A DNA stretch of 64,000 nucleotides from Elusimicrobiota bacterium (GTDB lineage Bacteria; Elusimicrobiota; Endomicrobiia; CG1-02-37-114; JAHJSO01): NCBI GenBank assembly GCA_043826435.1, contig JBDRQF010000053.1, positions 896 to 64,895 on the forward strand, read 5' to 3'. A program made the position numbers and the translations under genes. Under the pieces are notes generated by a model, which was not told the DNA's origin, did no database searches, and was given only the letters and a program-made list of their open reading frames with translations. Of this stretch, positions 27,583 to 55,995 are shown one piece after another (within the stretch, counting starts at the first letter, position 1; the number at the start of each line of letters is the position of its first letter).

Positions 27583-27617
27583 GAATACCGGCAGCAATCA
27601 ACATGGAGGAGATTTAA

Positions 27618-33545: not shown

Positions 33546-33581
33546 TGATTTTCTACCTCTACAGTAGTTTCTTGCTCACTA

Positions 33582-36500
33582 TTATTTTATCACTGCAACT
33601 TTATTCAGTGATTTTATTACTTTGTCATCTTTCTGTGCACGGACTAGATATATGAATACACCTGATGCTACATCGGGAGTATCCCAGGTGTATTCATACG
33701 CATATTTGTTGTCTATGATTTTCCAGTCATTACCAGAAATTTCAACTGAATGCACCAACTCTGCTGCTATGTTGTATATTTGTATTTCAATTTTATCTGC
33801 AGTACCTACTTCTATGTGTATCGTTGGGTTCTTACCTTCTTTTGCTGGATTTGGAAACGCATATACTTCACCAAGTTTGAATGTTGGGTCTGCAGTAATT
33901 TTTGGTTCTGGTTGTTCATCTGTTGACGGTGGTTCAGAAATAGCCACACCAGGAATGGGTGACATAATCTGATATAGTGAGAAATGGTTTGTCTCACAGG
34001 AAAGAGTATTTTCATCTGGATTGACTTTTGAACTTTCTATAGGTTCCCACAAACTTTTTTCTTCATTCCAGTAATATATTTTTAAGTCAGTCTCATCAAT
34101 ATATTTCACATTTTCATCAGTATAGTTCATTACAATTGTTATTGGTTTAGCAAATTGATTTGTGTCAGCATTAAATTCATAGCCTTTACCAACAGGTCTA
34201 ATTTTTATTTTCTCTGCTGATAATTTCTTACCATAACTAACCTGAACTGACATTGCAAGTATTTCTGTTTCTTTTCCTAACGCTCCTTTCGGTATAATCA
34301 ACTTTACACCGTCAGAACTTGTCAATTCGTCACCTTCAGATGAAACTTTTGTCATTATACTCGGTGAAATTATTTTGATTGTATCACTACCTATAAATTT
34401 TATCGGTTTGGATTCTATGTCAATTTCACCTTCAACTGTAATTTTTATTTCATCAGCAGGTATTACTACTTTTTGTAGTGCCTCTCTATCAAACTTCACC
34501 ATAAGGTCAGGTATACCGTCGTTGTCATGGTCGCCAATTCCTTTTGGTTTTGTCTCGGCATAAATTGGCTCTATTTCCATATTACCAATTTTTGTAATCT
34601 TTAATGTATTAATATTAACATCTTTCAGGTTATATTCAGTCGGTAATTCAATATATGCCGTAACCCATTTACCTTTTGATTTCAAGTTTAATGTATCAGG
34701 GTCAATATCAACAATAGCAACAACATGCGGTTCTTTACTAAATAGCGCATATAAAGATACTTGATATATCTCTGCTACTATACGATTGTTTGCTAAGTCA
34801 ACAAATTGATTTATTCCTGTAGTAACCCAAGTTGTTCCATCATACCGACGAATTTCTAAATTATTCCCGTCAAGTACAGGATCGTAAAGAAAAACTAAAA
34901 TTGCAGGTGCTAGAAAACTGCCCTGCGTTACATTTATATCATAAATAGCACTTTGTAAGAAAAGTCCTTTGTCGTTTATAGCATATGCTGTAGTAACCGG
35001 GATAGAAACTGTAGTAATACTTACATCAAAAGTAGGGTCGTGTCGTAAAATAATGTCTAAATAACTTGTACTAATTGTATTTGATTTAACTAATTCTATT
35101 GTTCCACTTTTGGGCTCTGAAGTAATCCATGGTACTGTAGGGGCTGGTTTATATCTTACCCAGGTATCATATTTATACACAGCAAAATTATAGTTGTCTG
35201 TATACCAGGAAACATTTTGAGTTAGACCTTCTGTAAACTTACCAAGGTCGCCAAAATCAATTGTTGTTATTGGGAGGATACTTGTTGAAGTTATTACTAT
35301 CTTAAACTGAAGTTCTACATTATCACCAGGAGCACATCCAGTAAAACTTATTGTTGATGTACTACCAATCACTATCGGGTCGGGGAAATCAATTAAATCA
35401 ACTACAATAGGTGCTGCTGTATCTACCTTTATAGCAAATGCACTTATCTTTTCTTGGCTTTCTTGTAGTGAAGGATTACTTGCTTTAACCTTGAGATAAT
35501 AGTTCCCGGATTTGATTTCTCCTGTTTGTTTCTTACCATCCCAGACAAATGAATGTAATCCACCAGATTGTGAAATTCTAGTTGCAAGTGTTCGTGCAAC
35601 TGTGCTTTTGTCTGATTCAAGTATTTCAACAGTTACTTCTTCTGCGGTTTCACTTAATATATATGAAACCGTACTTGTTTCACTTTCAAAAGGATTAAAT
35701 CTACTTGGTGTTGCTGATAAATTACTTATCGTTATTGATTTAACATTTATTACAAATTTGTCATTAGTATCAGGTAACATTACATTACCAACTAAATCAC
35801 TCGCATTCATAACAGTTATCTTTGCTATACCATCACCAGTATTCGGGTCAATTGCTACATCACTTGCAACTGTATATGTATCACTTGATTTATATGTAGT
35901 TGACCAAACAGGATTTGTATTTGCATATAAAGGTGGTACAACACCTTCCGGGTCAAAATATACCGTCGGTGGCTTTGTCAAATCCATCGATTCAGAGAAA
36001 ATTATCTTAAATATAGGTAATGTTCCAACTGCAGTAACTGTGCTTGGTGTAACTGTAATTGAAGTTGCTACTGGTGGAACACCATCCTTTGCTTGAATTG
36101 ATGAACCGATGACAGCATAATTTCCTGCTAGATCTGCAATTGAACTTACAATTATTACCCAGGGGTTAGCATCTGTTGGCATTACTGATGTTAAAGTTAT
36201 TTCAACTATTGTGTCTGTAATCAAACTGCCTGATTGCACAGTAAAACTTTCAACATTAAAGTCATTGCCACTTACTGTAGCAGCATCTAATTTCTCACTG
36301 AAAATTACATGAATTGTTGACGTACTTTTTGTTACTGCTGAAATTAATGATGGCGGAGTTTTATCACAAATTGCCCATGCTTGATTATTACCTACAGTTT
36401 GAATATTACCATCTTTATCCACTGGTTGAATAGTGTAGTAATAAACTACTCCGTCGATCAAACCTATACCTGAATCAATATATTTTGTAACTGTTGTTGT

Positions 36501-36857
36501 GGCAATTTCTATTCCTAATACAGGGTAAGTTGCTCTGAAAATTTTATAGTACCCTATACCTGTATTATCGTCAGTAACTTCTGACCAAGACAGTTCAATG
36601 TTACCTTGTATTCGGGCAGTTGCTGTTAAATCAACAACTGCGAATGGTGGTATGGTGTCTACATATTGGATATAGTCATATTCAATTATGGCTGAACGAA
36701 GCAACAGTTTATTACAAGTTATATCTTTATAGTCATATTCCAGTGTAGTTGAATGCAGTGTCAATGGTTGCGCCCCCGAATAAGTAATACAAAAAACAAG
36801 ATACAGAAGAAAAAAACAAAATGTGATTTTCTGCCAAATCCTTGACCTGAAGAACAT
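33582..36857 (-). CDS. Giant secreted surface protein (1091 aa) with FN3/Ig-like repeats and the conserved C-terminal cassette ending in a T9SS-type sorting domain
   Basis: N-terminal signal anchor. FN3-like 'IELSWSEV...YYKIFR...YYYTI'. The C-terminal 250 aa are homologous to the other two cargos, ending 'VYAFPNPAKEGKNPTIHI...IYNIAAELV...ASGVFIYLVRA...NKVAVIK'. Confidence 0.75.
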   Translation of the reverse strand: MFFRSRIWQKITFCFFLLYLVFCITYSGAQPLTLHSTTLEYDYKDITCNKLLLRSAIIEYDYIQYVDTIPPFAVVDLTATARIQGNIELSWSEVTDDNTGIGYYKIFRATYPVLGIEIATTTVTKYIDSGIGLIDGVVYYYTIQPVDKDGNIQTVGNNQAWAICDKTPPSLISAVTKSTSTIHVIFSEKLDAATVSGNDFNVESFTVQSGSLITDTIVEITLTSVMPTDANPWVIIVSSIADLAGNYAVIGSSIQAKDGVPPVATSITVTPSTVTAVGTLPIFKIIFSESMDLTKPPTVYFDPEGVVPPLYANTNPVWSTTYKSSDTYTVASDVAIDPNTGDGIAKITVMNASDLVGNVMLPDTNDKFVINVKSITISNLSATPSRFNPFESETSTVSYILSETAEEVTVEILESDKSTVARTLATRISQSGGLHSFVWDGKKQTGEIKSGNYYLKVKASNPSLQESQEKISAFAIKVDTAAPIVVDLIDFPDPIVIGSTSTISFTGCAPGDNVELQFKIVITSTSILPITTIDFGDLGKFTEGLTQNVSWYTDNYNFAVYKYDTWVRYKPAPTVPWITSEPKSGTIELVKSNTISTSYLDIILRHDPTFDVSITTVSIPVTTAYAINDKGLFLQSAIYDINVTQGSFLAPAILVFLYDPVLDGNNLEIRRYDGTTWVTTGINQFVDLANNRIVAEIYQVSLYALFSKEPHVVAIVDIDPDTLNLKSKGKWVTAYIELPTEYNLKDVNINTLKITKIGNMEIEPIYAETKPKGIGDHDNDGIPDLMVKFDREALQKVVIPADEIKITVEGEIDIESKPIKFIGSDTIKIISPSIMTKVSSEGDELTSSDGVKLIIPKGALGKETEILAMSVQVSYGKKLSAEKIKIRPVGKGYEFNADTNQFAKPITIVMNYTDENVKYIDETDLKIYYWNEEKSLWEPIESSKVNPDENTLSCETNHFSLYQIMSPIPGVAISEPPSTDEQPEPKITADPTFKLGEVYAFPNPAKEGKNPTIHIEVGTADKIEIQIYNIAAELVHSVEISGNDWKIIDNKYAYEYTWDTPDVASGVFIYLVRAQKDDKVIKSLNKVAVIK

Positions 36858-36887: not shown

Positions 36888-37265
36888 TTATCTATTTCCA
36901 TATAAAATATCTACTATCTTAAATATAGAGTAGACAACCTTATCTTTAGTCCTTTCAGGAAAATCGTTTTTTAAATTGAGTAGTCCGTATTTCGTCAATA
37001 ACTTTATTGGTTTCCTTTGAAATTGATAACACTTATAAGGAGAAAGTATTTTGAAACCAGCAGAAACGAGATATCTTTTCATTACCTCATAAGTGAAATA
37101 ATAAATATGTCCTTCAGGCATGACATAATGTGATTTTTCACCTTTATACCTAAATCTGTCAAAATTAGAAGTTGAATGATAAAACAGGCCTTTTTCTTTG
37201 TCCAAAAACTGCGAATCTTTACTGATATCATGTGTTCCTATATCGGTATAGGGCGGTAATACCAA
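36888..37265 (-). CDS. Hypothetical protein, possibly a C-terminal fragment of a class I methyltransferase
   Basis: Weak resemblance to the Methyltransf_23 C-terminal region. No motifs. Confidence 0.25.
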   Translation of the reverse strand: MVLPPYTDIGTHDISKDSQFLDKEKGLFYHSTSNFDRFRYKGEKSHYVMPEGHIYYFTYEVMKRYLVSAGFKILSPYKCYQFQRKPIKLLTKYGLLNLKNDFPERTKDKVVYSIFKIVDILYGNR

Positions 37266-37396
37266 ATTGAATTTTTCGCCTGTATTGTTTTAAAATTTTT
37301 TTAATCACGATATAATATTTGATTGAAAGAAGGAATATAAATAGCATTTTCACCTGTACTGAAAACTTTTCCAGCATACAATTCTTTTATTGGTAA

Positions 37397-38119
37397 TCAA
37401 TATGGTTTTTTCGCAACAAAAATGAGGCCATCTGACCACATCACATTTTTTTGATTATTGAATTTTATGGATTGTTCATAATTCAAAAAAAGCAGAGGGA
37501 ATTTTTTATGTAATATTCGGCTTAAAAATGAAAAAAAACATGTTATTAAAGGATGCAACCAAATATAATAGCTTTTTAAACTAGCGCGATAAATTCTGAT
37601 CTCTTGAAATTTATTTTTTTCTAAATACGAGTTCAATAAATATGGTGGAAGGACACTTATATGGTTGTGTTCTGAGAGCCAGAATGGATCAAAAAGAAAG
37701 AAACCTCCGGTCAGAAGGAATTTTACTCTTGAGTAAAGCGAGTTTATGTTGGGTATATCTAAGATGAAAATACCCTTTGGTGAGAGAATACGAAAAAATT
37801 CAGATAATGTGAACATAGGATTTTCAACATGTTCAATACCAGCAAGACACACCACCGCATCGAAGAAATTATCTTCAAAGGGTAAACGCTTGTTCATGTC
37901 AGCAAAAACACATTTAACTTTTTCAAAAGACATTTTTTCCGGTAAAATGTCCGCCGCATATACTTTATATTTATTTTCAAATAGTATCGATGTAAACAAA
38001 CCACTCCCTGCTGGAATGTCTAATACAGTTGACACATTGGGATAGGTTTTTAGAATTGATAAAACTTGTTCGTAAATTCCTAACATGGTTTGCCTCACCA
38101 TCTCATTGTTGGTTCCCAT
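37397..38119 (-). CDS. Class I SAM-dependent methyltransferase
   Basis: 'VLDIPAGSGLFT' (motif I) and 'FDAVVCLAGIEHVENP' (motif II/post-I). Confidence 0.65.
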   Translation of the reverse strand: MGTNNEMVRQTMLGIYEQVLSILKTYPNVSTVLDIPAGSGLFTSILFENKYKVYAADILPEKMSFEKVKCVFADMNKRLPFEDNFFDAVVCLAGIEHVENPMFTLSEFFRILSPKGIFILDIPNINSLYSRVKFLLTGGFFLFDPFWLSEHNHISVLPPYLLNSYLEKNKFQEIRIYRASLKSYYIWLHPLITCFFSFLSRILHKKFPLLFLNYEQSIKFNNQKNVMWSDGLIFVAKKPY

Positions 38120-38189
38120 AAGCGTTCCTTGACCTTTATTGATTAGAGAAATAAATCAAATTCACAATAACGGAATTATCTATTAAAAT

Positions 38190-39524
38190 TCATTTTGCGT
38201 CAGTTCTTAATGTAATTTCTATTTGTATATATCTGTGGTTAGCAGGACCGTTAATTTTTTGTGTTTTGTATACTTGGTGATATGTAGGCAATACATCAGT
38301 AGAAGCAAATGGAGCATTGCTTCCTCGCCATCTTACTTCGCGAGTAATTGTTATTCCATCGTAATCTATCACTTGTCTATAACCCGACGGTAATTCCGGA
38401 TATTCATCGGCAATGAAAGTTATTGACTTGATCCGTCCAGTATCTTTCTGTGTATCAATCACAGGACTTCTTATTGACGCCGAGACAACCCCAGGTTTAA
38501 GTTTAATATTCCCATTAACATCCAATTCAACTAATGCACTTGTTGTGATAGGAGTGCCATTTTCATCTATCCACCCAGACCATTGATCATTAAACCAAGA
38601 AGAAATTCTTCCAATGCCGTGAGCGCCAATGTTCTGAAATTCCCCATTTTCTACCGAGCCCGCCTTAAGACAAAGGGATGATGACTTTAAAAGAAATATC
38701 TCTTTGTCAATATCTAAAAACTGGGGATCTACGGAAATACTTTTCTGACCTATTTTCTGAGGAACTGGAAGTGGTGCATAGTTCACTTTTTCATTTTGAA
38801 AGAAATTGTTGTAGTCGCAATATAAAACTCTATCCCAAGAACGCACGACAATACTTTCTGACCCCTTATTTTCTACAAAATTGCAATTTTTGACACTGCC
38901 TATATCAACAAAATAACAAATTCCATCCCGTGTGGCAGAATTTCTAACGAAATTGCAATTCCTTATACTGTAGGAACCATAATAGCGTGAAACAATACAT
39001 GCACCTTCTGTTGCTTTATTGTTGAAAAAATCGCAAAATTCAATACTAATAAAATATCCACTGATATATATCGCTCCGCCAGTGTGCGCAACATTATCTT
39101 TGAATACACAATTTCTAATAGTGATGAAACTACCACCCATAAAATTACTTCCTTCAAAAACTCCAAAGCAGTTTTGTATTATAAATGAATCAATCGCAAT
39201 GTAATCTCGGTTAATAACAAAACCCATTCGCGTTTTCTCTCCATCAATAACCACCTCACCAACACCTTTAAGATAAATATTTGCTTCTTTCGTTCCTGAA
39301 TTAACAAATGTTATTGTTTCTTTATATGTTCCCTGATTGACATAAAGGGTATCACCTGCCACTGCTTTGCTGGTTGCTGCATTGATAGTTTTAAATGCCG
39401 TATCCCAACATAGTCCGTTATTAGTGTCACTCCCATTTAAAGAATCAACATAATAATTTGTTGCATTTACTGTAAACCAAACTGATAAAACTAAAACTGT
39501 TGCAAGAAATAATGTTTTCTTCAT
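38190..39524 (-). CDS. Secreted right-handed parallel beta-helix (pectin-lyase-fold) repeat protein
   Basis: Probable start at 'MKKTLFLATVLVLSVWFTVNA' (signal peptide). The ORF-track start at 39557 is 11 codons upstream. Repeats 'IRNCVFKDNVAHTGGAIYI', 'FCDFFNNKATEGACIV', 'IRNCNFVRNSATRDG', 'VKNCNFVENKGSES'. Confidence 0.6.
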   Translation of the reverse strand: MKKTLFLATVLVLSVWFTVNATNYYVDSLNGSDTNNGLCWDTAFKTINAATSKAVAGDTLYVNQGTYKETITFVNSGTKEANIYLKGVGEVVIDGEKTRMGFVINRDYIAIDSFIIQNCFGVFEGSNFMGGSFITIRNCVFKDNVAHTGGAIYISGYFISIEFCDFFNNKATEGACIVSRYYGSYSIRNCNFVRNSATRDGICYFVDIGSVKNCNFVENKGSESIVVRSWDRVLYCDYNNFFQNEKVNYAPLPVPQKIGQKSISVDPQFLDIDKEIFLLKSSSLCLKAGSVENGEFQNIGAHGIGRISSWFNDQWSGWIDENGTPITTSALVELDVNGNIKLKPGVVSASIRSPVIDTQKDTGRIKSITFIADEYPELPSGYRQVIDYDGITITREVRWRGSNAPFASTDVLPTYHQVYKTQKINGPANHRYIQIEITLRTDAK

Positions 39525-39765
39525 CTGTGAATAACCCCCTAAGTTATTGCCAAACATCTATAGTTCTTCTTTGACCTTTCTGGTAAATGACTGCCAGTGG
39601 GATAAACGTCTTGATATAATTTTACAATACTTAAATCATTTTGTCAAGTACACCGGATAACAGTACACAGGATATCTGTAATGTCTTTATCTTTTTCCGA
39701 CGATTTTTTGCACAAAATTTTACAATAAAAAAGGATAGCCCCCGCCAGGATGTCATGTTGATTTT

Positions 39766-40620
39766 TCAGGAGTTTTTATAAGCTAGTACAATAAAACTTT
39801 TTGCAAGTAATTTTGCCAGTTTCAGAGCGAGTATTGTTTTTATGTAAAACAATTTTATGTCCGGGTGAGCGTCAATGTTCAGGTTTTTATATTTAGCATA
39901 GATTCCGGCATTTTGCCTGTCACAAGCATAACCTTTTTCTTCAATATTAATAACCCCGCACGGATACTGATAGTTGATTACCGGCATATATACCGTGCTT
40001 CCGGCAAACCCTGCAGACCCGACCATCCCTTTTAATTTCCGGTAAGAATAGATGGGCGTTTTGTAGAGGCGCCCCGCCAGAAGGTAGGAAACAAAATCAG
40101 CGATTTTTCTCGGTAACATACAAACAAAGGGTAAACTGACGTGCGGGTCCCACAAAAGATTTAAGGGGAACCATCTGTTTTCTATCCCGAGGTATAACAC
40201 GCCGCCGTTTTTTAACAATGAAAACGCCCGTGACAGGACCCGTTGATGGACGTTTTCAAAATCCCCTGCCTCGTTTATTGCCGTCCATTCCAGTACGCCG
40301 TTAAGCAAAATCAGGTCAAAGGAATTTTCAGCCAGGCGGGCGGACAGGAACGGCTCCTGTATCAATGAAATGTTATTAACGTTGCCATTCTTAATCCTTT
40401 CCCTTATTATGCCCGCATATTCATCGGATGGCTCCACCGCGGTTACTTTTAGGCAGTGTTTCGCAAAGGCAATGCTTATGCCCCCGCCGCCGGCTCCGAT
40501 ATCCAGGATATTTTTGTTTTTTAACAGGCCGGTTTCCCGCATGATAAATTGGGCCATCATTTCCCCGCGGTTTAACCCGTCCAGCCAGGAGGATAGTTTA
40601 TTGGTTTCTGAGTTTTTCAT
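39766..40620 (-). CDS. Class I SAM-dependent methyltransferase
   Basis: 'ILDIGAGGGGISIAFAKHCLKVTAVEPS'. Confidence 0.65.
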   Translation of the reverse strand: MKNSETNKLSSWLDGLNRGEMMAQFIMRETGLLKNKNILDIGAGGGGISIAFAKHCLKVTAVEPSDEYAGIIRERIKNGNVNNISLIQEPFLSARLAENSFDLILLNGVLEWTAINEAGDFENVHQRVLSRAFSLLKNGGVLYLGIENRWFPLNLLWDPHVSLPFVCMLPRKIADFVSYLLAGRLYKTPIYSYRKLKGMVGSAGFAGSTVYMPVINYQYPCGVINIEEKGYACDRQNAGIYAKYKNLNIDAHPDIKLFYIKTILALKLAKLLAKSFIVLAYKNS

Positions 40621-42658
40621 TTGATAAAATCCATTTGGTTGTGTAATTGATTATTCTTCTGAAAAATATCCTTTTTAATACAGGAGGCCTGCCTGCATTA
40701 AAAGCAAACTCATTGCCCGTTATATGAACGAAATAGCGTATTTCAAAAAAGGACAACAGGTCGTCATTAACGACAGATTCAGACGCGTACGCCTGCAGAA
40801 ATATCCTTTTTAGTTCTTTTATCTTTTTATAATCAACAAAAGGACGTTTTAGTTTAAACATGTCCATACAAACCAAAAAGGTTGCCGGGTCATCATATAT
40901 AGTCCTGTAATCAAAATTTTCAAAATCCACGATACATATCTTGTTTTGTTTGTTGATTAAAATGTTTCTTGGTCCGAAATCCCCGTGACACCCGGTGACG
41001 TCAAAAGACATTTTCCTTATTCCGGGCAGGTTTTTTTTGAAATACGTCCTGAAAATATTTACTGCCTTTGCCGGCATGCCCATCTTTTCCAGGTTAAACA
41101 AATCATTTTGTATGACCCGGTCGTCCGTAAGGAATAGCTCCCCGCCGGGTAATTTTGTTTTTTGCGGCGTTTTATTTTGAAATATTAACAGCCATTCAGC
41201 GCATTTTTGTATAAGTTGTTGGACATGGATGCGTCCATATGGGGGGAAGATGGGGCGGGCATATTTAACCAAGGCGTCTCTAAATTGTGAGGCGTCCTTA
41301 ATAACCTCTGTGGCCACGTAGTTGAAGTCCGACGAGTAACATACGGGGTTTTCAGTTATAAAGCCATTTTCCTGATTAAAAATATCGCCCAATCTTACCA
41401 TAAGACCAAAAATCTCCGGCGCCTTTTTTCCGGGGACAGGTTTTACAACGACGGTTTTCTCCGTATAGTCGGAAAAGGCCAGATTTATTTTCATAATCCT
41501 TTTGCCACGCGCGGAAAATTTAATTATTTTTTTACCGCAGGCGTTTTCTATGTCTGTCTTTAGTTGGTTTATAAAACCCTCAGGATAGAGTTTTCGCGGG
41601 AGCGGCCTGGCAATCACGCCGTACAATTTTTCCAGTTCCTGCATTTGTTTGCCTGTGTCAAACTTCTCTTTTATTTTTATTCTCGCATTTTCCCCGGCGA
41701 TGTTTCTTAATTTTTCATCCCCCAGTACTTTTAATAAAATTCCTGACAATTCCAAAGCATTGGGTTTAACCAGAAAACCGTCCCTGTTATTCTCAATGAT
41801 TTCTATGGGACCACCGGTGTTCGTTGATATTACCGCTTTGCCGCATGCCATCGCTTCAATTATTATCCTGCCGAACGGCTCGGGCTGGATTGACGGGTTA
41901 ACGACGATGTCGCAGATGCTCATCAACTGCGGGACATCTTTTCTGAACCCGGCAATTATAACGTCGCCAGTTAATCCCAAATCCCGGATTTTTGTTTCTA
42001 TGTTATTTTTCTCGGGCCCATCGCCGGCTATCAAAAACACAACGTTATTTATGTTTTCTTTAACTATTTTCGCTGCTTCCAGAAACAGGGAATGTCCTTT
42101 CCACGAATCAAAGCGGGAGAACATGCCTACAACCATTTTGCCATTTTCTATGTTTAAGCCCTTACGAAGTTCCCCTGTATCAATGCCCGGTTTAAACGTT
42201 TCCGTGTCCACTGCATTGTATATTTTTATGATTTTATCCTTTTGCCTTTCCCGGGATAACTGTTCGCCCACGGCGTCGGAGATAACTATAATCCTCGCAG
42301 ACAAAGAGGCAATTAACCTGTCTCTCCAGCCGTGCGGATGTATTACGCGGACGTGCCATACAAAAGGTATCCCTAACAGTTTTGATATGAGCGCTGCAGC
42401 GAAAGCGTACTTTTTCACGGGCGCGTTGCAATGGACGATTGACGGCATAAATTTTTTGATGGCGGAAAACAAGCCCCGCAACGGCACCACCCGGCATGGA
42501 ATATTTTCCGCTTCAAGCAGGTTAGTGTAGGAGGACCTGCCGGGGACAAACACGACAGGGTCGTATTTTGACCTGTCCAGGTGTTTTAATATGAGCAACA
42601 AACTTATCTGCCCGCCTCCCGGCGGCTCAATCGGAGTATCAAGATATAAAACTTTCAT
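40598..42658 (-). CDS. Fusion protein: N-terminal GT4 glycosyltransferase plus C-terminal APH/Kdo-kinase-like phosphotransferase domain
   Basis: GT4 N-terminus ('MKVLYLDTP...GGGQISLL', 'EPFGRIIIEAMACGKAVIST'). C-terminal kinase motif 'CHGDFGPRNILI...IVDFEN'. Confidence 0.6.
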   Translation of the reverse strand: MKVLYLDTPIEPPGGGQISLLLILKHLDRSKYDPVVFVPGRSSYTNLLEAENIPCRVVPLRGLFSAIKKFMPSIVHCNAPVKKYAFAAALISKLLGIPFVWHVRVIHPHGWRDRLIASLSARIIVISDAVGEQLSRERQKDKIIKIYNAVDTETFKPGIDTGELRKGLNIENGKMVVGMFSRFDSWKGHSLFLEAAKIVKENINNVVFLIAGDGPEKNNIETKIRDLGLTGDVIIAGFRKDVPQLMSICDIVVNPSIQPEPFGRIIIEAMACGKAVISTNTGGPIEIIENNRDGFLVKPNALELSGILLKVLGDEKLRNIAGENARIKIKEKFDTGKQMQELEKLYGVIARPLPRKLYPEGFINQLKTDIENACGKKIIKFSARGKRIMKINLAFSDYTEKTVVVKPVPGKKAPEIFGLMVRLGDIFNQENGFITENPVCYSSDFNYVATEVIKDASQFRDALVKYARPIFPPYGRIHVQQLIQKCAEWLLIFQNKTPQKTKLPGGELFLTDDRVIQNDLFNLEKMGMPAKAVNIFRTYFKKNLPGIRKMSFDVTGCHGDFGPRNILINKQNKICIVDFENFDYRTIYDDPATFLVCMDMFKLKRPFVDYKKIKELKRIFLQAYASESVVNDDLLSFFEIRYFVHITGNEFAFNAGRPPVLKRIFFRRIINYTTKWILSNEKLRNQ

Positions 42659-42702
42659 AAAAACTGTCGGCTAAGAGTTACGCCATTCATGTCCGAGGTA
42701 AT

Positions 42703-43527
42703 TTACTTCCTTGCTACGGCTAAAATTGACAAATACCAGTCCTTTCCGAATAATTTTGAAACGTAGTATGAGATTTTTTCTATTATTTTCCAGTAGGGGT
42801 CAACCTGACAAAAGTCAGGCCCCAATCTTACCACCCTGAAATTGTTTTTTTCAAGTAGAAGTTTTAATGTGATATAAGAAAAGTGATACAGATGCGGTTC
42901 TTTAGAATCCGACGTATATATTTGGAAATAATATCCATTAATTAATCTATAAAATTTTTGTCCGATTATATCGTGTATGTTTGGCACAGCAACGAACAGA
43001 TGTCCACCGGGTTTAAGTAAATGGTATGCCTTTTTTAATGTAATCTCTGGATGTGATAAATGTTCAAGTGTATGCCAGAATGTAATAATATCAAACGAAT
43101 TTTCCTGCAACCCGGAATCTTCCAATGTTGTCTTGGTAATATCAAGGCCGAAATTATCTTTTGCATATTGAACAGCAAACCCTGAAATTTCTACGCCTGA
43201 AATATCATAACCGGCATTTTTAGCACGGTAAAGGAACAGCCCCTCCCCGCAGCCGACATCAAGAAGTTTACCAGATGGCATAACTCTTTTTACAACCTTA
43301 ACTCGGTTCTGCCACAGTTTTTGTCTTCTTAATTGTTGTTTTGGTGTAATCCAGTGTGAATAATAATCGCTCCCGTATTTTTCTAATAATTCATTTTGGT
43401 CAGGTTGTAGGTTGGTAAAAACCAATTTACAATTTGTACAAATATAGATATGGATGCCATAGAGACCATTTTTATATGGGATGAAATCAGTACCATTACA
43501 AATTATGCATTGACTCACTTCGAGCAT
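42703..43527 (-). CDS. Class I SAM-dependent methyltransferase with an N-terminal Cys4 zinc ribbon
   Basis: 'CIICNGTDF...CTNCKLVF'. 'LLDVGCGEGLF'. 'FDIITFWHTLEHL'. Confidence 0.65.
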   Translation of the reverse strand: MLEVSQCIICNGTDFIPYKNGLYGIHIYICTNCKLVFTNLQPDQNELLEKYGSDYYSHWITPKQQLRRQKLWQNRVKVVKRVMPSGKLLDVGCGEGLFLYRAKNAGYDISGVEISGFAVQYAKDNFGLDITKTTLEDSGLQENSFDIITFWHTLEHLSHPEITLKKAYHLLKPGGHLFVAVPNIHDIIGQKFYRLINGYYFQIYTSDSKEPHLYHFSYITLKLLLEKNNFRVVRLGPDFCQVDPYWKIIEKISYYVSKLFGKDWYLSILAVARK

Positions 43528-44507
43528 AACTTTACAATCCTTCCAATATCAAACATAACATCAGCGGTCAATTTGATACACGGAAAAACAAAAAAGGTTA
43601 TTATTCTTTTACCTTTACTAAAATTAGATAAATGAAAATAATTAAACATAAATCTTGTTCTGGATATTTGTAAAAAATACCAGACAAAAAATGCTACCGG
43701 TAAAATTATCCAACCAAAGATAACACTCAATACTATAACAGGTAAAAGTTTCAATATTATTGATGTTGAAATTAGATAGTTAGTGTGAACAGTATGTTTT
43801 AGAAATAAATCAGCATCGGCTTTACCTCTACGAATGTACCATTTTATTATCTTAAAAAAATTGTTTCTCGGATGGTGCCATACCACAGCATCCGGCACAT
43901 ATCCAAAAGCATTATTTCCAAGTTTTTTTGTTATTCTTATTGACAAATCTGTATCCTCGCTACCGTAACGATTTTTCAAATCAAACCAGCCTACATTTTG
44001 GATAACTGATTTTTTAATTATGGTATTACAGGTAGCAACCTGGGACAATGGAATAACCTTGCCTTTAGAAAAATTATGTAAACGGAAACCACCCCCGGGA
44101 TGGCCCAAAACACCCTCACAGAAACCAATAATGTTGGGTTGACCGGGGAACACTGCGCCCATTACGCCGCCCATTACGCCGACAAGATTTTTGGGTTCTT
44201 GTATCTCTTTTGTAAGTTCGTAAAACCAACTTTCCGTAACCTCCACATCATCATCAATAAAAACAATATAATCACCACCTGCATTTTTTACACCGATATT
44301 TCTCTGATTGCTGTACCCGGCTTCTGAAAACGGCAGTTTGATATGTTGGACAGGATATTTTAAATCAGATATAGCCCCTCCTGACTCAACAACAATAACC
44401 TCAACTTCCGAGGGGATAAATTCCAGAAGTTTTTTCAGACAATTTATTAAAAGTTCCCTGTTATCTTTTGAGATTATCACTATTGAGAATTTCATTGTAA
44501 TATTCAA
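43515..44507 (-). CDS. GT2-family glycosyltransferase with a C-terminal membrane segment
   Basis: 'FSIVIISKDNRELLINCL' and 'DYIVFIDDDVEV' (DxD). Confidence 0.65.
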   Translation of the reverse strand: MNITMKFSIVIISKDNRELLINCLKKLLEFIPSEVEVIVVESGGAISDLKYPVQHIKLPFSEAGYSNQRNIGVKNAGGDYIVFIDDDVEVTESWFYELTKEIQEPKNLVGVMGGVMGAVFPGQPNIIGFCEGVLGHPGGGFRLHNFSKGKVIPLSQVATCNTIIKKSVIQNVGWFDLKNRYGSEDTDLSIRITKKLGNNAFGYVPDAVVWHHPRNNFFKIIKWYIRRGKADADLFLKHTVHTNYLISTSIILKLLPVIVLSVIFGWIILPVAFFVWYFLQISRTRFMFNYFHLSNFSKGKRIITFFVFPCIKLTADVMFDIGRIVKLCSK

Positions 44508-45639
44508 TCATTTTGCTAACAATATGTTTCCACTGATATTTTTCTTCAATAAGTTTTCCACTGTTCTTTCCGAGCATTATTCTTTTTTGAGAATTGTTTA
44601 ACAATTCAATAACAGCATTAGCAAATGCAAGAGGGGTTTCCGCAAACACAATGTTATGATTGTTTTCAACCTCAATTCCTTCACAAGCATTTCTTGTTGC
44701 CACCACAGGAAGCCCGAACGCGAGTGCTTCTAAGATTTTATTTCTAATCCCGAGACCGCTTCGTATCGGGGCAACAAAGATACTGGAATTTTTTAAATAA
44801 TCGTAGATATTACTAACATAACCTGTAACAATTATGGACTTATCTTTAACAGCGAGGGCTGAAACTTTTTTTGACGGATTTCTGCCCACTATATAAAATT
44901 TAACATTTTTTATTTTATTTTTTATTTTTGGATAAATTCTTTCAACAAAATATAAAACAGTATCAACATTTGGAAAAAATGACATATCCCCGGTAAAGAT
45001 AAGGGTTTTGTTATTTGGCGAAACGCCTGATGGAAAACTTTCAGTATCTACCCCAGAAGGAACTATATAAACCTTCTTGTTCTTATATCTTTTTAATATA
45101 TAATCTCTTGCTTCCTCGGAGACCACAAAAAAATATTTATAATGAGCGTAAAATTTTCTATCTGCGAGATAAAACCTGGGTATTCTTAAAAGTTTTATTA
45201 ATTTTCTTAAAATATTACATTCATACCAGACCTCATACCATGCACCCTTCAACCCACAAGCCCATAAATCTATAATTAGAGGTATATCTTTAACATTTAC
45301 AAAATACTCGGCCATTTGAAATTTATGAACATGGATTAAATCATATTTATTCTTGCCAAAGATATCATTTACTACGGTCTCAAATTTTTTGTCTTTGCTG
45401 TACGCCTTCAGTAAAAAAAGATTCTTTAGACGCGATGTAACATTGTCCCGACATTCAACAGTATGGATGTTATCCACAAGGTCCTTAATTTCGTCCGTTA
45501 TTTCTGCGGAAGGTTCAGCAAAAGTGAGCAAGTCCACATCCACCTTTTCTTTTTTTAGATATTTCAACTGATGATACATTCTTGAACCACCACCGCCGAG
45601 AAGATGAGGGGGGCCAGGTGTAACAAAAAGTATTTTCAT
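44461..45639 (-). CDS. GT4-family glycosyltransferase
   Basis: 'GLGIRNKILEALAFGLPVVAT' is the GT4 C-terminal E-x7-E region. Confidence 0.65.
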   Translation of the reverse strand: MKILFVTPGPPHLLGGGGSRMYHQLKYLKKEKVDVDLLTFAEPSAEITDEIKDLVDNIHTVECRDNVTSRLKNLFLLKAYSKDKKFETVVNDIFGKNKYDLIHVHKFQMAEYFVNVKDIPLIIDLWACGLKGAWYEVWYECNILRKLIKLLRIPRFYLADRKFYAHYKYFFVVSEEARDYILKRYKNKKVYIVPSGVDTESFPSGVSPNNKTLIFTGDMSFFPNVDTVLYFVERIYPKIKNKIKNVKFYIVGRNPSKKVSALAVKDKSIIVTGYVSNIYDYLKNSSIFVAPIRSGLGIRNKILEALAFGLPVVATRNACEGIEVENNHNIVFAETPLAFANAVIELLNNSQKRIMLGKNSGKLIEEKYQWKHIVSKMIEYYNEILNSDNLKR

Positions 45640-46766
45640 TGTAGCGCTCTCTTAAAAACTTCTAAAGTTTCTCTGGCTGTTTTTTCCCAACTAAAAAATT
45701 TGGCACGGTTAATGCCTTTAAGACCTAATTCTTTTTTTAATTGTCCATCATTTAAAACTTTAAGTATAGCGGTTAAAATTTCTTCTTCGTTTAATGGGTT
45801 CACCAATATCCCGGCATCACCGACAACCTCCGGAATAGAAGTTGTATTAGAAGCAATCACAGGCACTCCACAAGCCATCGCTTCTACCACTGGGAGGCCA
45901 AACCCTTCATACAGGGAAATAAATACAAACATCTCGGCACCGCTATAAATATAAGGCAAATCCTCATCAGGAATATAATCCAAAACCAATATTTCTTCTT
46001 GTAGATTTAATCTGTGAATTGTTTCTATAATTTCTTGGCCCCAATATTTCTTTCCACAAAGAACCAATTTGTGCGGTATTCCATGAACCCTCTTGAGTTT
46101 TTCAAAAACATTTACCAATCTATGCAGGTTTTTATGTGGTCCGAGGTTGCCAACATAAAGTATATATCTTTCATCTATCTTGTATTTTCTTAAGACAGCT
46201 ATAATCCTCTCTTTATCTTCAATCATGTTAAAAATTTCATCAGCAGCAAGCGGAATAACAACTATTCTGTCTGGTTGAACATCATAATATTTACATAAAT
46301 CGTTTTTCGTATATTCTGAAATAGTTATCAAATATTTTGACCTTTTAATTGTATTTTTGAGACGTAAATCAAATATTTCTCTGTGTTCTTTATACCCGTC
46401 ATATTTCATTGTGGTAATATCATAAACCACTGAAACAATCTGACATTTCTTAAATACAGGAGAAAAATAAATTGTAGAAAAATAAATATCCGGATTACCA
46501 AAAAGTTTTTTTGTTAACGGCATACAAATATTTTCCCTGGTCCAAAAAAACTCTAAAATTCTATTAGGTATTCTAATTTTAGATAACAACACATTGGATG
46601 GAAAACTAAAATTATCTATGAGATTATTTTTTTTCACCCCAATCCTGAAAGATAAGGTATAGTGGTTTTCACTATCAATACTGAAAATATGTTTTAAAAC
46701 AGAATTCAAATATGATCTTCCACCTGCTTGACCAAGCAGAGGAAGTGCATCAATTGCTATTTTCAT
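45636..46766 (-). CDS. GT4-family glycosyltransferase
   Basis: 'EGFGLPVVEAMACGVPVIAS'. Confidence 0.7.
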   Translation of the reverse strand: MKIAIDALPLLGQAGGRSYLNSVLKHIFSIDSENHYTLSFRIGVKKNNLIDNFSFPSNVLLSKIRIPNRILEFFWTRENICMPLTKKLFGNPDIYFSTIYFSPVFKKCQIVSVVYDITTMKYDGYKEHREIFDLRLKNTIKRSKYLITISEYTKNDLCKYYDVQPDRIVVIPLAADEIFNMIEDKERIIAVLRKYKIDERYILYVGNLGPHKNLHRLVNVFEKLKRVHGIPHKLVLCGKKYWGQEIIETIHRLNLQEEILVLDYIPDEDLPYIYSGAEMFVFISLYEGFGLPVVEAMACGVPVIASNTTSIPEVVGDAGILVNPLNEEEILTAILKVLNDGQLKKELGLKGINRAKFFSWEKTARETLEVFKRALQ

Positions 46767-48042
46767 CCCAATTCCTCATCTCTTTAAAATCTAAAATTAA
46801 ATTGTTCGGGGAAAATACAACTTTTTTTTTCAATACACGATAAAAAATATAGCAACACAAACTAAAACCAAATATTTGTGTAAAAGCCGTTGCTATGGCG
46901 GCGCCAGACGGTCCAATTTTAGGAATTAACAGTAAATTTAAAGCGATATTCAGGAACAGATTAAATATTGCAACCATTAAAATTTTTTTTTGTTGATTTA
47001 TTGCAATAAATATACTACCAAAGATGATATTTGCGAACAAGAAAGGAACGCCTATCAACAAATAGTTAAAAACACTCACTGAATCTTTGAATTTCAAAGA
47101 TAAAAACGATAAAATGAATACTCTACCGAATAAAACAAATATTAAAAGAATTGCTACGCCAAGCAAAAATATTCCCGTTAAAGTTACTCTGATTAACGCG
47201 GCAAATCTTTTCATATCATTGGAATATTTAGAAATCAGAGGAAAAACGACCGAATTGACAACCGCTGGGAAGAACAATAAAAAATTATAAAATTGCAAAG
47301 CGCCATTGTATATTCCGACTTCGTTTTCTGATTTAAGAAACATCAACATTAGCGTGTCAATCTTTGTATATAACAGAGAAATTATTACTATCAAAAACAA
47401 GGGCATTGACTCTTTTAATAAAAACTTAATTTTCTCGTAGGAGGGCTTATAAATAGGAGTAACAATTCTTCTGCCGATTACAAACGAAATTGTGCTTACA
47501 ACATATTCATTAAAAACTTGAAATAGAAAATAATAAACAAAATCTAATTTTAAAACTATAGATATTATTATCTGCAGTAAAAAAAGCAACTTCTTGAAAT
47601 TGTTGAATATAACGAGGTACCATATTTTTAATTCTGAGTAATAGACCGAATTAACGGCGGTAATGGGGTATACCAAAAGTATAAAGGAATACAGAATAAC
47701 ATAAATTTTTTTTGTATTATCCAAAAAAATACTTGAAAATAATAATATTATTATAAAAGTAAAAAATGTTAAAAATGTTCTAAGCAAAATAACATTTCCT
47801 AAAAACCCCCCTCCATTTTTTTTATCTTTAGAAAGTTCTCGCGTCAAAATAGGAGACATTCCTATATCAGCAATTGGAGAAAATATTGAGATAAAACTGA
47901 AAACAAACCAGTATATGCCAAATTCTTCTACTGATAAATACCGCGCTAACAATGAAATAGTAGCGATTGAAAGTAATGTCTCAGGTATTTTTCCAAAAAT
48001 CTGCGACGATATATTAGCAAAAACTACTTTTGTGAATTTCAT
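46750..48042 (-). CDS. wzx: Wzx-like oligosaccharide flippase (MOP superfamily)
   Basis: 12 or more predicted TM helices. N-terminal 'ISSQIFGKIPETLLSIATISLLARYLSVEEFGIY' is typical of the polysaccharide-biosynthesis protein family. Confidence 0.6.
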   Translation of the reverse strand: MKFTKVVFANISSQIFGKIPETLLSIATISLLARYLSVEEFGIYWFVFSFISIFSPIADIGMSPILTRELSKDKKNGGGFLGNVILLRTFLTFFTFIIILLFSSIFLDNTKKIYVILYSFILLVYPITAVNSVYYSELKIWYLVIFNNFKKLLFLLQIIISIVLKLDFVYYFLFQVFNEYVVSTISFVIGRRIVTPIYKPSYEKIKFLLKESMPLFLIVIISLLYTKIDTLMLMFLKSENEVGIYNGALQFYNFLLFFPAVVNSVVFPLISKYSNDMKRFAALIRVTLTGIFLLGVAILLIFVLFGRVFILSFLSLKFKDSVSVFNYLLIGVPFLFANIIFGSIFIAINQQKKILMVAIFNLFLNIALNLLLIPKIGPSGAAIATAFTQIFGFSLCCYIFYRVLKKKVVFSPNNLILDFKEMRNWDENSN

Positions 48043-48819
48043 TTATTTTCTTGCCTTTATCACACACACACCATTGACCCCACAAATTGAAGGCGCATTT
48101 TCCTTCTCTAATTCGTCCGACTTAGAGACATTCCAATATTTATTATCTGTTCTTTTATAGTAAAGTTCTTTCTCAATTTTAAAACCTTCCAATAATTTCA
48201 AAATCCTATCTTTATCATATACCCTGTAGTTTTTTGTTATCATGTTTTTGCCAAAAGGAACTGAAAGTATAAATATTCCATTTTCTTTTAATAGCCCATA
48301 AACTTTTTTTGCTACCATCATATCTCCATCAATATATTTTTCAGAACCATATACTTCCAACCCGATGTGTTCTAATACCGATATTGCAACGACAGCATCA
48401 AACTTCTCATTAAAATCTATACAATTTAAATCACCTTTAATAAATGTCAATCTATTGTGTGAAATATCATAGTCCCTGATATCTACCCCAAAAACTTCAT
48501 AACCAATGCTTGCCAGTTCCAATGCCTCATAACTGCCGCTACATCCAAACACTAATACTTTGCTGCCAAATGGTATATCTAATAATCTGAACAAGAGAGG
48601 ATACTCTACGATTCTTTCTGTCACATAAAAGTCAAAGTGTTTTGGTAACTTCTTCCGCCATAAAAATTCAAAGACACCACGCAATCTAAAAAAAATATTA
48701 TTGGGTGCTTTGTAATAATATACCAGGGGAAAACTTTCATATGGATGTTCAAAAAACCTATGCTGGATAAAAAGTTGCAAAGATAGAAATTTTTTGCATT
48801 TTTTTATTATATTTGTCAT
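48043..48819 (-). CDS. Class I SAM-dependent methyltransferase
   Basis: 'VLVFGCSGSYEALELA' and 'FDAVVAISVLEHI'. Confidence 0.6.
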   Translation of the reverse strand: MTNIIKKCKKFLSLQLFIQHRFFEHPYESFPLVYYYKAPNNIFFRLRGVFEFLWRKKLPKHFDFYVTERIVEYPLLFRLLDIPFGSKVLVFGCSGSYEALELASIGYEVFGVDIRDYDISHNRLTFIKGDLNCIDFNEKFDAVVAISVLEHIGLEVYGSEKYIDGDMMVAKKVYGLLKENGIFILSVPFGKNMITKNYRVYDKDRILKLLEGFKIEKELYYKRTDNKYWNVSKSDELEKENAPSICGVNGVCVIKARK

Positions 48820-50225: not shown

Positions 50226-50230
50226 GGGGC

Positions 50231-50259
50231 TTGATTTTTCACAAAAAATTTTGTATTAT
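50231..50259 (+). promoter_or_regulatory. Sigma70-like promoter (TTGATT-17 nt-TATTAT) placed to give a leaderless or near-leaderless transcript of the DUF2062 gene
   Basis: The -10 element ends 7 nt before the ATG at 50267. It lies in the divergent intergenic region with the Wzy-like gene. Confidence 0.4.
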
Positions 50260-50266
50260 GTAGTGT

Positions 50267-50782: not shown

Positions 50783-50790
50783 TCCGGATA

Positions 50791-52758: not shown

Positions 52759-52781
52759 ACATAAGGATGGCGGTGCCGGGT

Positions 52782-53159: not shown

Positions 53160-53241
53160 TATTCATTGTCTCCTTTCTAAGAGTACAACCAGTGATTCCC
53201 ACCCGCTCTCAGGGGGATTATAGCATCTAAGAAGATGTGTG

Positions 53242-54983: not shown

Positions 54984-55015
54984 TTTTTATTAACCTCCGT
55001 ATCAATCCCATTTGC

Positions 55016-55831: not shown

Positions 55832-55842
55832 GTGTGCATGTC

Positions 55843-55990: not shown

Positions 55991-55995
55991 ACCTT

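Follow-up and report, generated by a model that had tools for sequence, protein, structure and literature searches.

A GT4 glycosyltransferase-kinase fusion protein coupled to a methyltransferase in an Elusimicrobiota glycan locus, with a possible role in methyl-phosphate decoration

On surface glycans, phosphate and methyl-phosphate groups govern the completion of chains, their recognition for export and their antigenic properties. To our knowledge these groups have been described for just two enzyme systems, each part of an enterobacterial pathway with an ABC transporter. A 64,000-nucleotide stretch of DNA from an uncultured member of the Elusimicrobiota (contig JBDRQF010000053.1; "the window") encodes a kinase-like domain attached to a GT4 glycosyltransferase, next to methyltransferase genes and within a glycan locus that carries a Wzx flippase. 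We asked what such a combination of activities might do there, and whether it represents another route to phosphorylated or methylated glycans, as an earlier note on this DNA had suggested by analogy with the O-antigen chain terminator WbdD.

The GT4-kinase fusion protein

The genes at the centre of this question are:

39766-40620, minus strand: MT284, a 284-aa class I SAM methyltransferase (PF08241, PF13649)
40598-42658, minus strand: GT4-kinase gene, 686 aa (stop codon at 40598-40600)
41612-42658, minus strand: GT4a, the GT4 glycosyltransferase domain of that protein, aa 1-349 (PF00534, PF13692, PF13439)
40601-41611, minus strand: APH-fold small-molecule kinase domain of that protein, aa 350-686 (PF01636 and catalytic residues)
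42703-43527, minus strand: zinc-ribbon class I SAM methyltransferase, 274 aa, upstream of the GT4-kinase gene (PF13489, 82 bits)

Pfam searches and an ORF check confirmed the zinc-ribbon methyltransferase, GT4-kinase and methyltransferase-GT4 genes that the earlier note had described on the minus strand. The GT4 part of the 686-aa protein scores 141.7 bits against PF00534, in addition to its PF13439 and PF13692 matches. Both GT4a and the GT4 domain of a second methyltransferase-GT4 pair (GT4d, see below) combine a GT-B N-terminal match (PF13439/PF13579) with a C-terminal one (PF00534/PF13692), as expected of the CAZy family GT4. GT4a shares 55% identity with a stand-alone GT4 of a related locus (L001). 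Every GT4 scored far under the cutoffs of the NCBIfam equivalogs, from which no sugar specificity can be assigned.

The C-terminal domain matches the APH family PF01636 with 28.8 bits as an isolated domain and 27.4 bits in the whole protein (cutoff 23.2); the homologue P0001 falls just under this cutoff (21.9 bits). It carries an HGDFGPRN...VDFE motif at aa 558-580. We checked the positions of the beta3 Lys, the alphaC Glu, the HxDxxxxN catalytic loop and the DFx Mg-binding Asp, and found K406, E415, H558, D560, N565 and D578. In an alignment of 65 family members the catalytic K, E, HxD, N and D are conserved, with D578 invariant and K406, H558, D560 and N565 at least 90% conserved. The Asp and Asn residues on which the kinase assignment had been made to depend (D560, N565, D578) are thus in place, and this family-wide conservation led us to reject a dead pseudokinase. 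A high-confidence structural model shows the two lobes of a kinase fold, the C-lobe being helical and of the APH type; it is confident through the final helix, and the globular kinase domain is the last part of the protein. As judged from its sequence, this domain is a catalytically intact kinase of the APH superfamily.

Searching the kinase domain against the PDB with phmmer gave no match, and a two-sequence profile gave marginal matches. Word-index searches with the domain alone and with the two-sequence profile each recovered one relative, P0001; the family itself was recovered by exhaustive HMMER search. A Bacilli APH-like gene, the sole return of a genome-contig scan, was discarded as unrelated and from a non-glycan context. 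The nearest folds of the model include the sugar kinases maltokinase, glucosamine kinase, methylthioribose kinase and NahK. Maltokinase and glucosamine kinase phosphorylate free sugars in cytosolic metabolism, and maltokinase (Mak/Pep2) is often complexed or fused with trehalose synthase; unlike the window kinase, to which they are ~11% identical, neither is partnered by a GT4 or a methyltransferase. Among PDB kinases the nearest to the window domain is AmiN, which is also the nearest for the kinase of Klebsiella pneumoniae O7 ORF6 (PMC11231755); this is the one link seen between the two.

The earlier note had called the domain APH/Kdo-kinase-like, of which the APH part held and the Kdo part did not: its score lies below the threshold of PF06293, the family of the LPS core kinases WaaP and Kdo kinase, which are protein-kinase-like and phosphorylate sugars on a lipid-linked glycan. 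We also rejected choline/ethanolamine kinase, given a PF01633 score of 25.9 bits (cutoff 29) and a window locus with no cytidylyltransferase/LicD-type gene.

The fusion is genuine. The GT4-kinase ORF is uninterrupted, an identical 686-aa protein occurs on an independent Logan contig, and the 90% cluster of this protein has three members from different assemblies. Other lineages hold full-length GT4-kinase homologues with 23-27% identity. Fusions of GT4a-type domains to the kinase were also found in P0129, P0131 and P0138 and, more distantly, in P0187, P0198 and P0200, and P0214 has the reverse order, kinase then GT4. We therefore rejected an assembly or frameshift chimera, a concern that had been raised with the original observation. 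Public records label these proteins just "glycosyltransferase" or "aminoglycoside phosphotransferase family protein", and our literature searches found no earlier description of GT4-APH fusions.

The methyltransferase coupled to the kinase

A coupling of kinase and methyltransferase activities had been proposed from the window sequence, with the upstream zinc-ribbon enzyme as the partner. The coupling stands, but the methyltransferase involved is the downstream MT284, which had gone unmentioned. Its start overlaps the end of the GT4-kinase gene by 23 nt. Nine related kinase loci were examined (the window, L001 and L006-L012), and in every one an MT284-type methyltransferase comes immediately after the kinase or forms a fusion with it; those of the eight loci other than the window are 36-51% identical to MT284. 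Three of them (L001, L006 and L012) share the order GT4b, kinase, MT284, GT4c, GT4d. L006 has MT284 joined to the kinase in one protein, L001 has it joined to GT4c, and in L012 GT4, kinase and MT284 are all separate. Kinase::MT284 fusions occur in P0123 and P0128. A further locus (L078), which we also count among the fusions of this methyltransferase type to the kinase, encodes a zinc-ribbon-methyltransferase-kinase fusion, together with GT9 genes and a GT4-methyltransferase fusion. All pairwise fusions of GT4, kinase and methyltransferase occur.

For a reciprocal metagenome scan we used the MT284 profile as the only seed and fetched 80 loci, 58 of which were informative. A kinase-family ORF was adjacent or fused to the MT284 homologue in 38 of these (16 upstream, 18 downstream, 2 divergent and 2 in the same ORF), and 20 had no adjacent kinase. 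Among the closest MT284 homologues, the kinase is upstream in almost all informative loci, with L025 as a clear exception. Two distant GT4-kinase fusions (L013 and L014) have no neighbouring MT284, suggesting that the kinase product is not always in need of methylation. In two other related loci, L004 and L005, a search up to 10 kb from the methyltransferase-GT4 fusion gene turned up no kinase and no MT284.

Across many genomes, the coupling of kinase to MT284 is strict and that of kinase to GT4 is frequent. Gene order and fusions thus point to MT284, not the upstream zinc-ribbon methyltransferase, as the evolutionary partner of the kinase. The GT-kinase-methyltransferase module recurs and is so far unstudied. 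The PDB similarity of MT284 is that of a generic class I methyltransferase, with matches confined to the SAM-binding core and WbdD absent among those listed; its 284 aa include no extension. The GC content of the GT4-kinase and MT284 genes (40-45%) is like that of the locus core.

The glycan locus and possible products of the module

The surrounding locus includes:

26377-29507, plus strand: Wza and Wzc-like genes
46750-48042, minus strand: Wzx flippase (PF01943, 91 bits)
48043-48819, minus strand: DUF268-like methyltransferase
48816-50225, minus strand: Wzy_C protein with 13 TM segments (PF04932, 33.7 bits, cutoff 31.7)
53242-58267, minus strand: conserved core block, downstream of the methyltransferase-GT4d fusion (Pfam)
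58134-60221, minus strand: zinc-ribbon methyltransferase-GT4d fusion, 695 aa (methyltransferase ~59271-60221, GT4d ~58134-59270; Pfam)
60202-61410, minus strand: GT4c (Pfam)
61407-62786, minus strand: GT4b (Pfam)

The core block encodes a 523-aa unknown protein, WbqC, an AAA_22 ATPase, a PIG-L deacetylase and a WecA-like polyprenyl-phosphate sugar-phosphate transferase, and has the same order in L004 (32-67% identity) and L005 (31-63%). GT4b and GT4c are the genes that flank the kinase-methyltransferase pair in L001, L006 and L012. The Wzy_C protein could be a polymerase, a ligase or an O-oligosaccharyltransferase. No ABC transporter (Wzm/Wzt) was found among the scanned window ORFs of at least 90 aa; five ORFs of 105-128 aa fell outside that scan and are too small for Wzm or Wzt. 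The Wzx/Wzy-type setting proposed for the locus is thus borne out. The window and related loci carry about five methyltransferases each, indicating that O-methylation of sugars is common here. GT9 heptosyltransferase-like genes occur in several of the related kinase-methyltransferase loci.

The explanation we favour, at a probability of roughly 0.45, is that the GT4-kinase and MT284 form a module that adds methyl-phosphate to a lipid-linked, Wzx-flipped glycan, as a decoration or cap. Within this explanation, the 686-aa protein would be bifunctional, a GT4 glycosyltransferase joined to a sugar kinase of APH fold, and translationally coupled to MT284. The setting would be a pathway conserved in Elusimicrobiota and Omnitrophota that makes a WecA-initiated, undecaprenyl-linked, Wzx-flipped and heavily methylated glycan. 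GT4a would place a hexose on the lipid-linked intermediate at the cytoplasmic face, the fused kinase would use ATP to phosphorylate a hydroxyl of that hexose or of a neighbouring sugar, and MT284 would methylate the phosphate to give a methyl-phosphate substituent. The chemistry would be that of WbdD and K. pneumoniae O7 ORF6, but carried out by unrelated or very distant enzyme families. The kinase fairly probably acts on the glycan, not on a free precursor; that MT284 acts on the phosphate is close to an even bet. Against this explanation stand the generic similarity of MT284, the MT284-family loci with no adjacent kinase and the distant GT4-kinase fusions with no MT284. In addition, the kinases of most similar fold act on small molecules in free form, and MT284 may be one more O-methyltransferase among the several of the locus.

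This last possibility leads to the strongest alternative, which we consider unlikely though worth weighing: the kinase phosphorylates the glycan, and MT284, as an ordinary O- or N-methyltransferase for sugars, modifies a different atom and leaves the phosphate free or further substituted, for example in a phosphodiester bridge. The number of methyltransferases per locus, the generic similarity of MT284 and the distant GT4-kinase fusions without it are consistent with this, and CDP-alcohol phosphotransferase genes in the related loci L005 and L006 suggest phospho-head-group chemistry. It offers no obvious reason, however, for the adjacency or fusion of MT284 to the kinase, in both orders, in dozens of loci, and the only characterised glycan kinase-methyltransferase pairs all make methyl-phosphate (PMC3482155, PMC11231755).

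Less likely still is a role in precursor supply. The kinase would then act on a free sugar, at the anomeric position as in maltokinase, NahK or AmgK, or on an amino-alcohol in the manner of choline/ethanolamine kinase, and MT284 would methylate a small molecule (for example phosphoethanolamine to phosphocholine) whose product feeds the GT4 or a transferase. We found no sugar-1-P nucleotidyltransferase, LicC or LicD in the window or the nine kinase loci, and the PDB methyltransferase matches span just the SAM-binding core. Fusion of kinase and GT4 in both orientations, and of MT284 and GT4 in L001, better fits a shared lipid-linked intermediate.

The analogy with WbdD holds for the activities and fails for the features of a terminator. 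In WbdD (E. coli O9a/K. pneumoniae O3) a kinase phosphorylates the lipid-linked glycan and a SAM methyltransferase then methylates the phosphate (PMC3482155). The window module couples the same two activities within a glycan locus, and relatives of its genes fuse them as WbdD does (kinase-methyltransferase in P0123 and P0128, methyltransferase-kinase in L078). In contrast to WbdD, the window module has a kinase of the APH small-molecule type joined to a GT4, with the methyltransferase encoded by a gene of its own. The second known system, K. pneumoniae O7 ORF6, consists of methyltransferase, kinase, CBM, coiled coil and two GT2 modules (PMC11231755). By its description, ORF6 differs in its 223-aa unannotated kinase domain, its GT2 instead of GT4 modules, its coiled-coil ruler and its dependence on an ABC transporter; the window proteins have neither a coiled coil nor a GT2 fusion.

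We rejected membership of the WbdD family, given the missing coiled-coil ruler and ABC transporter and the different kinase subfamily. That the pair nonetheless caps a growing polymer and sets its length for export is very improbable: nothing extends past the globular kinase domain, Wzm/Wzt are replaced in this locus by Wzx, Wzy_C, Wza and Wzc, and the sequence and fold matches listed for the window kinase and methyltransferase do not include WbdD. Moreover, polymerisation in Wzx/Wzy pathways is periplasmic, beyond the reach of cytoplasmic ATP- and SAM-dependent enzymes. Since the module has neither ruler nor ABC transporter, methyl-phosphate addition would be expected to decorate or cap a unit, not to terminate a length-measured polymer; this is the part of the suggested capping or decoration route that survives. 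Artefactual fusions or a pseudokinase deserve next to no weight, given uninterrupted ORFs, independent assemblies, fused homologues elsewhere and family-wide catalytic residues, with no point found in their favour.

More speculatively, the module might be a third, independently evolved kinase-methyltransferase pair for glycan methyl-phosphate, hard-wired to GT4, dependent on Wzx and not on an ABC transporter, in Elusimicrobiota and Omnitrophota. The cap would be set on the lipid-linked unit before flipping, perhaps halting cytoplasmic elongation or marking a finished unit, and the MT284-kinase pair, which occurs with either gene first across dozens of environmental glycan loci, would be a general, unannotated signature of methyl-phosphate decoration. 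We regard this broader proposal as less likely than not. A distinct, widespread pair of this kind, variously fused to GT4, would show such chemistry to be common both in uncultured phyla and in pathways of the flippase type. An APH-like kinase adjoining an MT284-type methyltransferase would then serve as a simple genomic marker for it, and new bifunctional glycosyltransferase-kinase enzymes would become available for glyco-engineering.

The zinc-ribbon methyltransferase-GT4 pairs

The 274-aa methyltransferase begins with a zinc ribbon (C7xxC10...C30xxC33, or CxxC-x19-CxxC), followed by the methyltransferase domain; of 8 relatives in the alignment, 7 retain all four Cys. Its GC content (35%) resembles that of the adjoining low-GC variable cassette. 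We rejected a TcaB9-type C-methyltransferase identity, as it does not match the Pfam models of that family and its PDB matches cover the SAM core only.

The 58134-60221 fusion has the same parts (CxxC...CxxC, methyltransferase, GT4) in a single ORF. Its true start is probably the ATG at 60221, giving 695 aa. This length agrees with that of the deposited MFH2070921.1, from the same 90% cluster, and an ORF extended to a TTG start at 60275 would run 74 nt into the upstream gene. The methyltransferase-then-GT4 order thus occurs twice in the window, as had been noted. The two pairs are mutual best matches within it, with 27% identity over 270 aa for the methyltransferases (E 1e-27) and 26% over 387 aa for the GT4 domains (E 8e-28), and we infer distant paralogy, not chance adjacency of generic domains. 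This order is not kept among relatives: in L004 and L012, a GT4a-like gene is followed by the zinc-ribbon methyltransferase.

The simplest reading of both pairs, the 274-aa enzyme (42703-43527) with GT4a and the 695-aa fusion, is that they add and O-methylate sugars in this same glycan pathway. In the S-layer glycan pathway of Geobacillus stearothermophilus, the WsaE methyltransferase O-methylates a sugar that WsaE helps install (PMC2943079). WsaE resembles the 695-aa protein in architecture, with an N-terminal methyltransferase and then a glycosyltransferase in one polypeptide; it differs in having two GT domains, which are those of a rhamnosyltransferase, and in working in an ABC-transporter pathway where its methylation caps the polymer. 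The synteny of the methyltransferase-GT4d fusion is conserved in L004 and L005, the two parts are adjacent genes in L006, and at least 20 fused methyltransferase-GT4 clusters were found among the best 120 homologues.

Fused genes in a glycan-assembly region

An earlier note on this DNA described a zinc-ribbon methyltransferase preceding a GT4 glycosyltransferase twice, once as adjacent genes with a kinase fused to the GT4 and once as a single polypeptide. We found the three genes as described, all on the minus strand. Their neighbours constitute a glycan-assembly region, and the window derives from an Elusimicrobiota MAG (MFH2070905.1).

Genes of the module and of the surrounding glycan-assembly region
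42703-43527 (-): zinc-ribbon methyltransferase (ZnMT), 274 aa; N-terminal C7xxC10...C30xxC33 and a class I SAM methyltransferase domain (PF13489, 82 bits)
40598-42658 (-): GT4-kinase, 686 aa; residues 1-349 GT4 (GT4a; PF00534, 141.7 bits), C-terminal 337 residues APH
39766-40620 (-): SAM methyltransferase (MT284), 284 aa; its start overlaps the end of the kinase gene by 23 nt
58134-60275 (-): methyltransferase-GT4 fusion, single ORF; CxxC...CxxC, methyltransferase, GT4 (GT4d)
46750-48042: Wzx
48816-50225: Wzy_C protein, 13-TM
53242-54369: WecA-like initiating transferase
26377-29507: Wza and Wzc-like genes

The same region also encodes PIG-L, WbqC, one GT2, five more GT4 genes or domains and three more methyltransferases, and no ABC transporter was detected among the window ORFs scanned. 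The true start of the methyltransferase-GT4 fusion is most likely the ATG at 60221, as the predicted 695 aa product then has the length of the deposited MFH2070921.1, a member of the same 90% cluster.

Within the window, ZnMT and the methyltransferase domain of the 695-aa fusion are mutual best matches (27% over 270 aa, E 1e-27), as are GT4a and the GT4 domain of that fusion (26% over 387 aa, E 8e-28). The four cysteines of the zinc ribbon are kept in 7 of 8 aligned relatives. An identical GT4-kinase protein occurs on an independent Logan contig, and three proteins from separate assemblies make up its 90% cluster. Among the top 120 homologues, at least 20 clusters share the methyltransferase-GT4 architecture, with source names that suggest Elusimicrobiota, Endomicrobia and Omnitrophota. 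This recurrence in other assemblies excludes the possibility, raised in the earlier note, that the fusions are assembly chimeras.

The kinase domain and its methyltransferase partner

The isolated C-terminal domain matches Pfam APH at 28.8 bits (gathering threshold 23.2), and the motif HGDFGPRN...VDFE spans residues 558-580 of the 686-aa protein. In a 65-sequence kinase alignment, the Mg-binding Asp (D578, full-protein numbering) is invariant, and K406 (beta3), H558, D560 (catalytic base) and N565 are conserved at ≥90%; E415 is placed in the alphaC helix. Thus the catalytic Asp and Asn residues, whose presence the earlier note had left to be checked on an alignment, are all retained. The best PDB sequence match of the family profile is the amicoumacin kinase AmiN (E 4e-11). 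Pfam Choline_kinase scored 25.9 bits, under its cutoff of 29. The APH assignment of the earlier note is upheld, and its suggestion of a Kdo-type kinase was rejected, with the Pfam Kdo/WaaP model at 12.4 bits, under the 21.3 cutoff. Based on the conserved residues and profile scores, the domain is an APH-fold kinase with its catalytic residues intact, from a subfamily not named before, neither Kdo-type nor of the type found in WbdD, the methyltransferase-kinase chain terminator of Escherichia coli O9a and Klebsiella pneumoniae O3. Word-index searches recovered only one kinase relative (P0001, stand-alone, 327 aa, 39% identity); an exhaustive HMMER search yielded 253 representatives at E ≤ 1e-3, 26 of them at E ≤ 1e-10. 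The relatives of MT284 number 527.

Among the multi-domain members of this family, every pairwise fusion occurs (Pfam, BLAST). Three GT4-kinase proteins (P0129, P0131 and P0138) align over their full length to the window protein with 23-27% identity, three GT4-kinase fusions are more distant (P0187, P0198 and P0200), and P0214 has the order kinase-GT4. P0123 and P0128 are kinase-methyltransferase fusions in which the methyltransferase shares 39-42% identity with MT284 and is not a counterpart of ZnMT. The coupling of kinase and methyltransferase put forward earlier therefore stands, with the downstream MT284 as the partner in place of the upstream ZnMT.

Related loci carry the same signal. In L001 an MT284::GT4c fusion comes after a stand-alone kinase, and a gene of its own encodes the GT4a orthologue (55% identity). 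The kinase of L006, L007/L008, L009/L010, L011 and L012 either is fused to an MT284-type gene or has one directly after it. Within 10 kb of the fusion gene, L004 and L005, which have no kinase, have no MT284 either. We conducted a reciprocal test that could have refuted this coupling, in which 80 metagenome loci were fetched by the MT284 family profile alone and then searched with the kinase HMM. The coupling was upheld in 38 of the 58 loci with sufficient flanking sequence, where a kinase-family ORF is directly adjacent to MT284 or in the same ORF (16 upstream and 18 downstream on the same strand, 2 divergent, 2 same ORF). Domain-level coordinates revealed two more overlapping cases (L034 and L062). 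For the closest MT284 homologues the kinase lies upstream in almost all informative loci, with L025 as a clear exception.

Locus L078 (1594-6626) encodes a 643-aa Trm112-type zinc-ribbon::methyltransferase::APH-kinase fusion and a 599-aa GT4::methyltransferase fusion, the latter in reversed order relative to the methyltransferase::GT4 of the window; each fusion gene has a GT9 gene immediately upstream. The domain order of the 643-aa protein is WbdD-like, with domains of the MT284 and APH-kinase families. An MT284 neighbour is absent from L013 and L014, which encode more distant GT4-kinase fusions, so the GT4-kinase link is wider than the methyltransferase link.

In combination, fusion, translational coupling and co-presence or co-absence in many genomes show a recurrent, unannotated module of uncultured phyla in which a GT4 is joined to an intact APH-fold kinase and to a specific SAM methyltransferase.

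Gene order and GC composition

L001, L006 and L012 share the order GT4b, kinase, MT284, GT4c, then zinc-ribbon methyltransferase and GT4d, followed in L012 by an epimerase, a WecA-like gene and an AAA_22 gene. The window has this array in two separate parts. The first, at 53.2-62.8 kb, comprises GT4b, GT4c, the ZnMT::GT4d fusion, a 523-aa protein of no known function, WbqC, AAA_22, PIG-L and the WecA-like gene, and from GT4c to the WecA-like gene it is ordered as in L004 and L005. The second, at 39.8-42.7 kb, comprises GT4a::kinase and MT284, whose GC content of 40-45% is core-like within a 29-36% GC cassette that includes ZnMT. Because of this mosaic and the split array, the ZnMT-GT4a adjacency is looser, in composition and evolution, than the kinase-MT284 link. 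A GT4a-like gene lies beside a zinc-ribbon-type methyltransferase in L004 and L012, in reversed order relative to the window.

The mosaic is sharp, as the 29-36% GC cassette around 39766-42658 abuts a conserved core (48816-62786) of 44-50% GC. The cassette (36888-48819) holds a methyltransferase, a beta-helix protein, ZnMT, GT2, two GT4 genes, Wzx and a methyltransferase. This pattern points to horizontal exchange of a variable cassette, and to a rearrangement by which an ancestral gene array was split.

An AAA_22 ATPase occurs near the WecA-like transferase in the window (53242-58267, -) and four relatives, directly beside it in L007 and L012 and with only PIG-L between in the window, L004 and L005. 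AAA_22 often has PIG-L deacetylase, WbqC and a conserved ~500-aa protein (weak PHP match, 1-3 hydrophobic segments) nearby; this neighbourhood is listed for L004, L005, L007, L009 and L012. The GT4, the kinase and the methyltransferase are shown to sit in loci that direct a polyprenyl-linked, Wzx-flipped glycan with heavy methylation. CDP-alcohol phosphotransferase genes in L005 (2190-4606) and L006 (1716-2747), one fused to a methyltransferase, hint that some relatives transfer phospho-alcohol head groups to the same glycans.

Proposed reaction and other features of the window

We infer that GT4a would add a sugar on the cytoplasmic face, that the kinase would phosphorylate this sugar or a neighbouring one, and that MT284 would methylate the phosphate. 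WbdD and K. pneumoniae O7 ORF6 are the sole glycan kinase-methyltransferase pairs to have been characterised, and both yield methyl-phosphate (PMC3482155, PMC11231755). For this reason, and because so close a tie to a kinase is not expected of a methyltransferase whose target is an unrelated atom, phosphate is the candidate substrate of MT284. R18, R75, R149 and H160 are invariant in the MT284 family alignment, outside the SAM motif, and weakly recall the positively charged Arg/His of the WbdD methyltransferase domain, where R203, H132 and H133 are suggested to form the lining of a phosphate pocket. That MT284 is instead an ordinary O- or N-methyltransferase, leaving the phosphate free or bridging, is the strongest alternative, though an unlikely one. 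It is more doubtful still that the module serves precursor supply, with a free sugar or amino-alcohol as its substrate; no nucleotidyltransferase, LicC or LicD genes for such a precursor were found in the window and the kinase loci, and the GT4 fusions weigh against this role.

A literal WbdD-type terminator, the kind of system to which the earlier note compared this set of activities, is very improbable. The module lacks the coiled-coil ruler and Wzm/Wzt of WbdD systems, and no homology to WbdD was found among the matches listed. Polymerisation in Wzx/Wzy pathways takes place in the periplasm. Thus the modification is better read as decorating or capping the lipid-linked unit than as terminating the polymer at a given length. 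The kinase-plus-methyltransferase idea survives, though the partner methyltransferase and the kinase family differ from those first proposed and the terminator architecture is lacking. Least of all do we expect an artefact.

Elsewhere in the window, two PorV-like outer-membrane proteins each lie beside a giant secreted protein (20348-25902, +; 32574-36857, -). The partners are 1518 aa with NosD, LamG and fn3, and 1091 aa with FlgD_ig and a sub-threshold match to CHU_C, a type IX secretion sorting domain; each pair is type-IX-secretion-like in matching cargo with shuttle. Two tandem paralogous PMT_2 proteins (GT-C type glycosyl/arabinosyl transferase-like) with C-terminal TPR repeats are encoded at 16576-20275 (+). 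The stretch at 10400-16300 (~39% GC) looks mobile and contains a Fic-like/HATPase_c_4 protein, a BRO-N protein, an NTP_transf_5 nucleotidyltransferase and an rve integrase fragment. At the window edge (18-6185, +) is a giant 2055-aa protein with lamin-tail, fn3 and beta-propeller-like domains.
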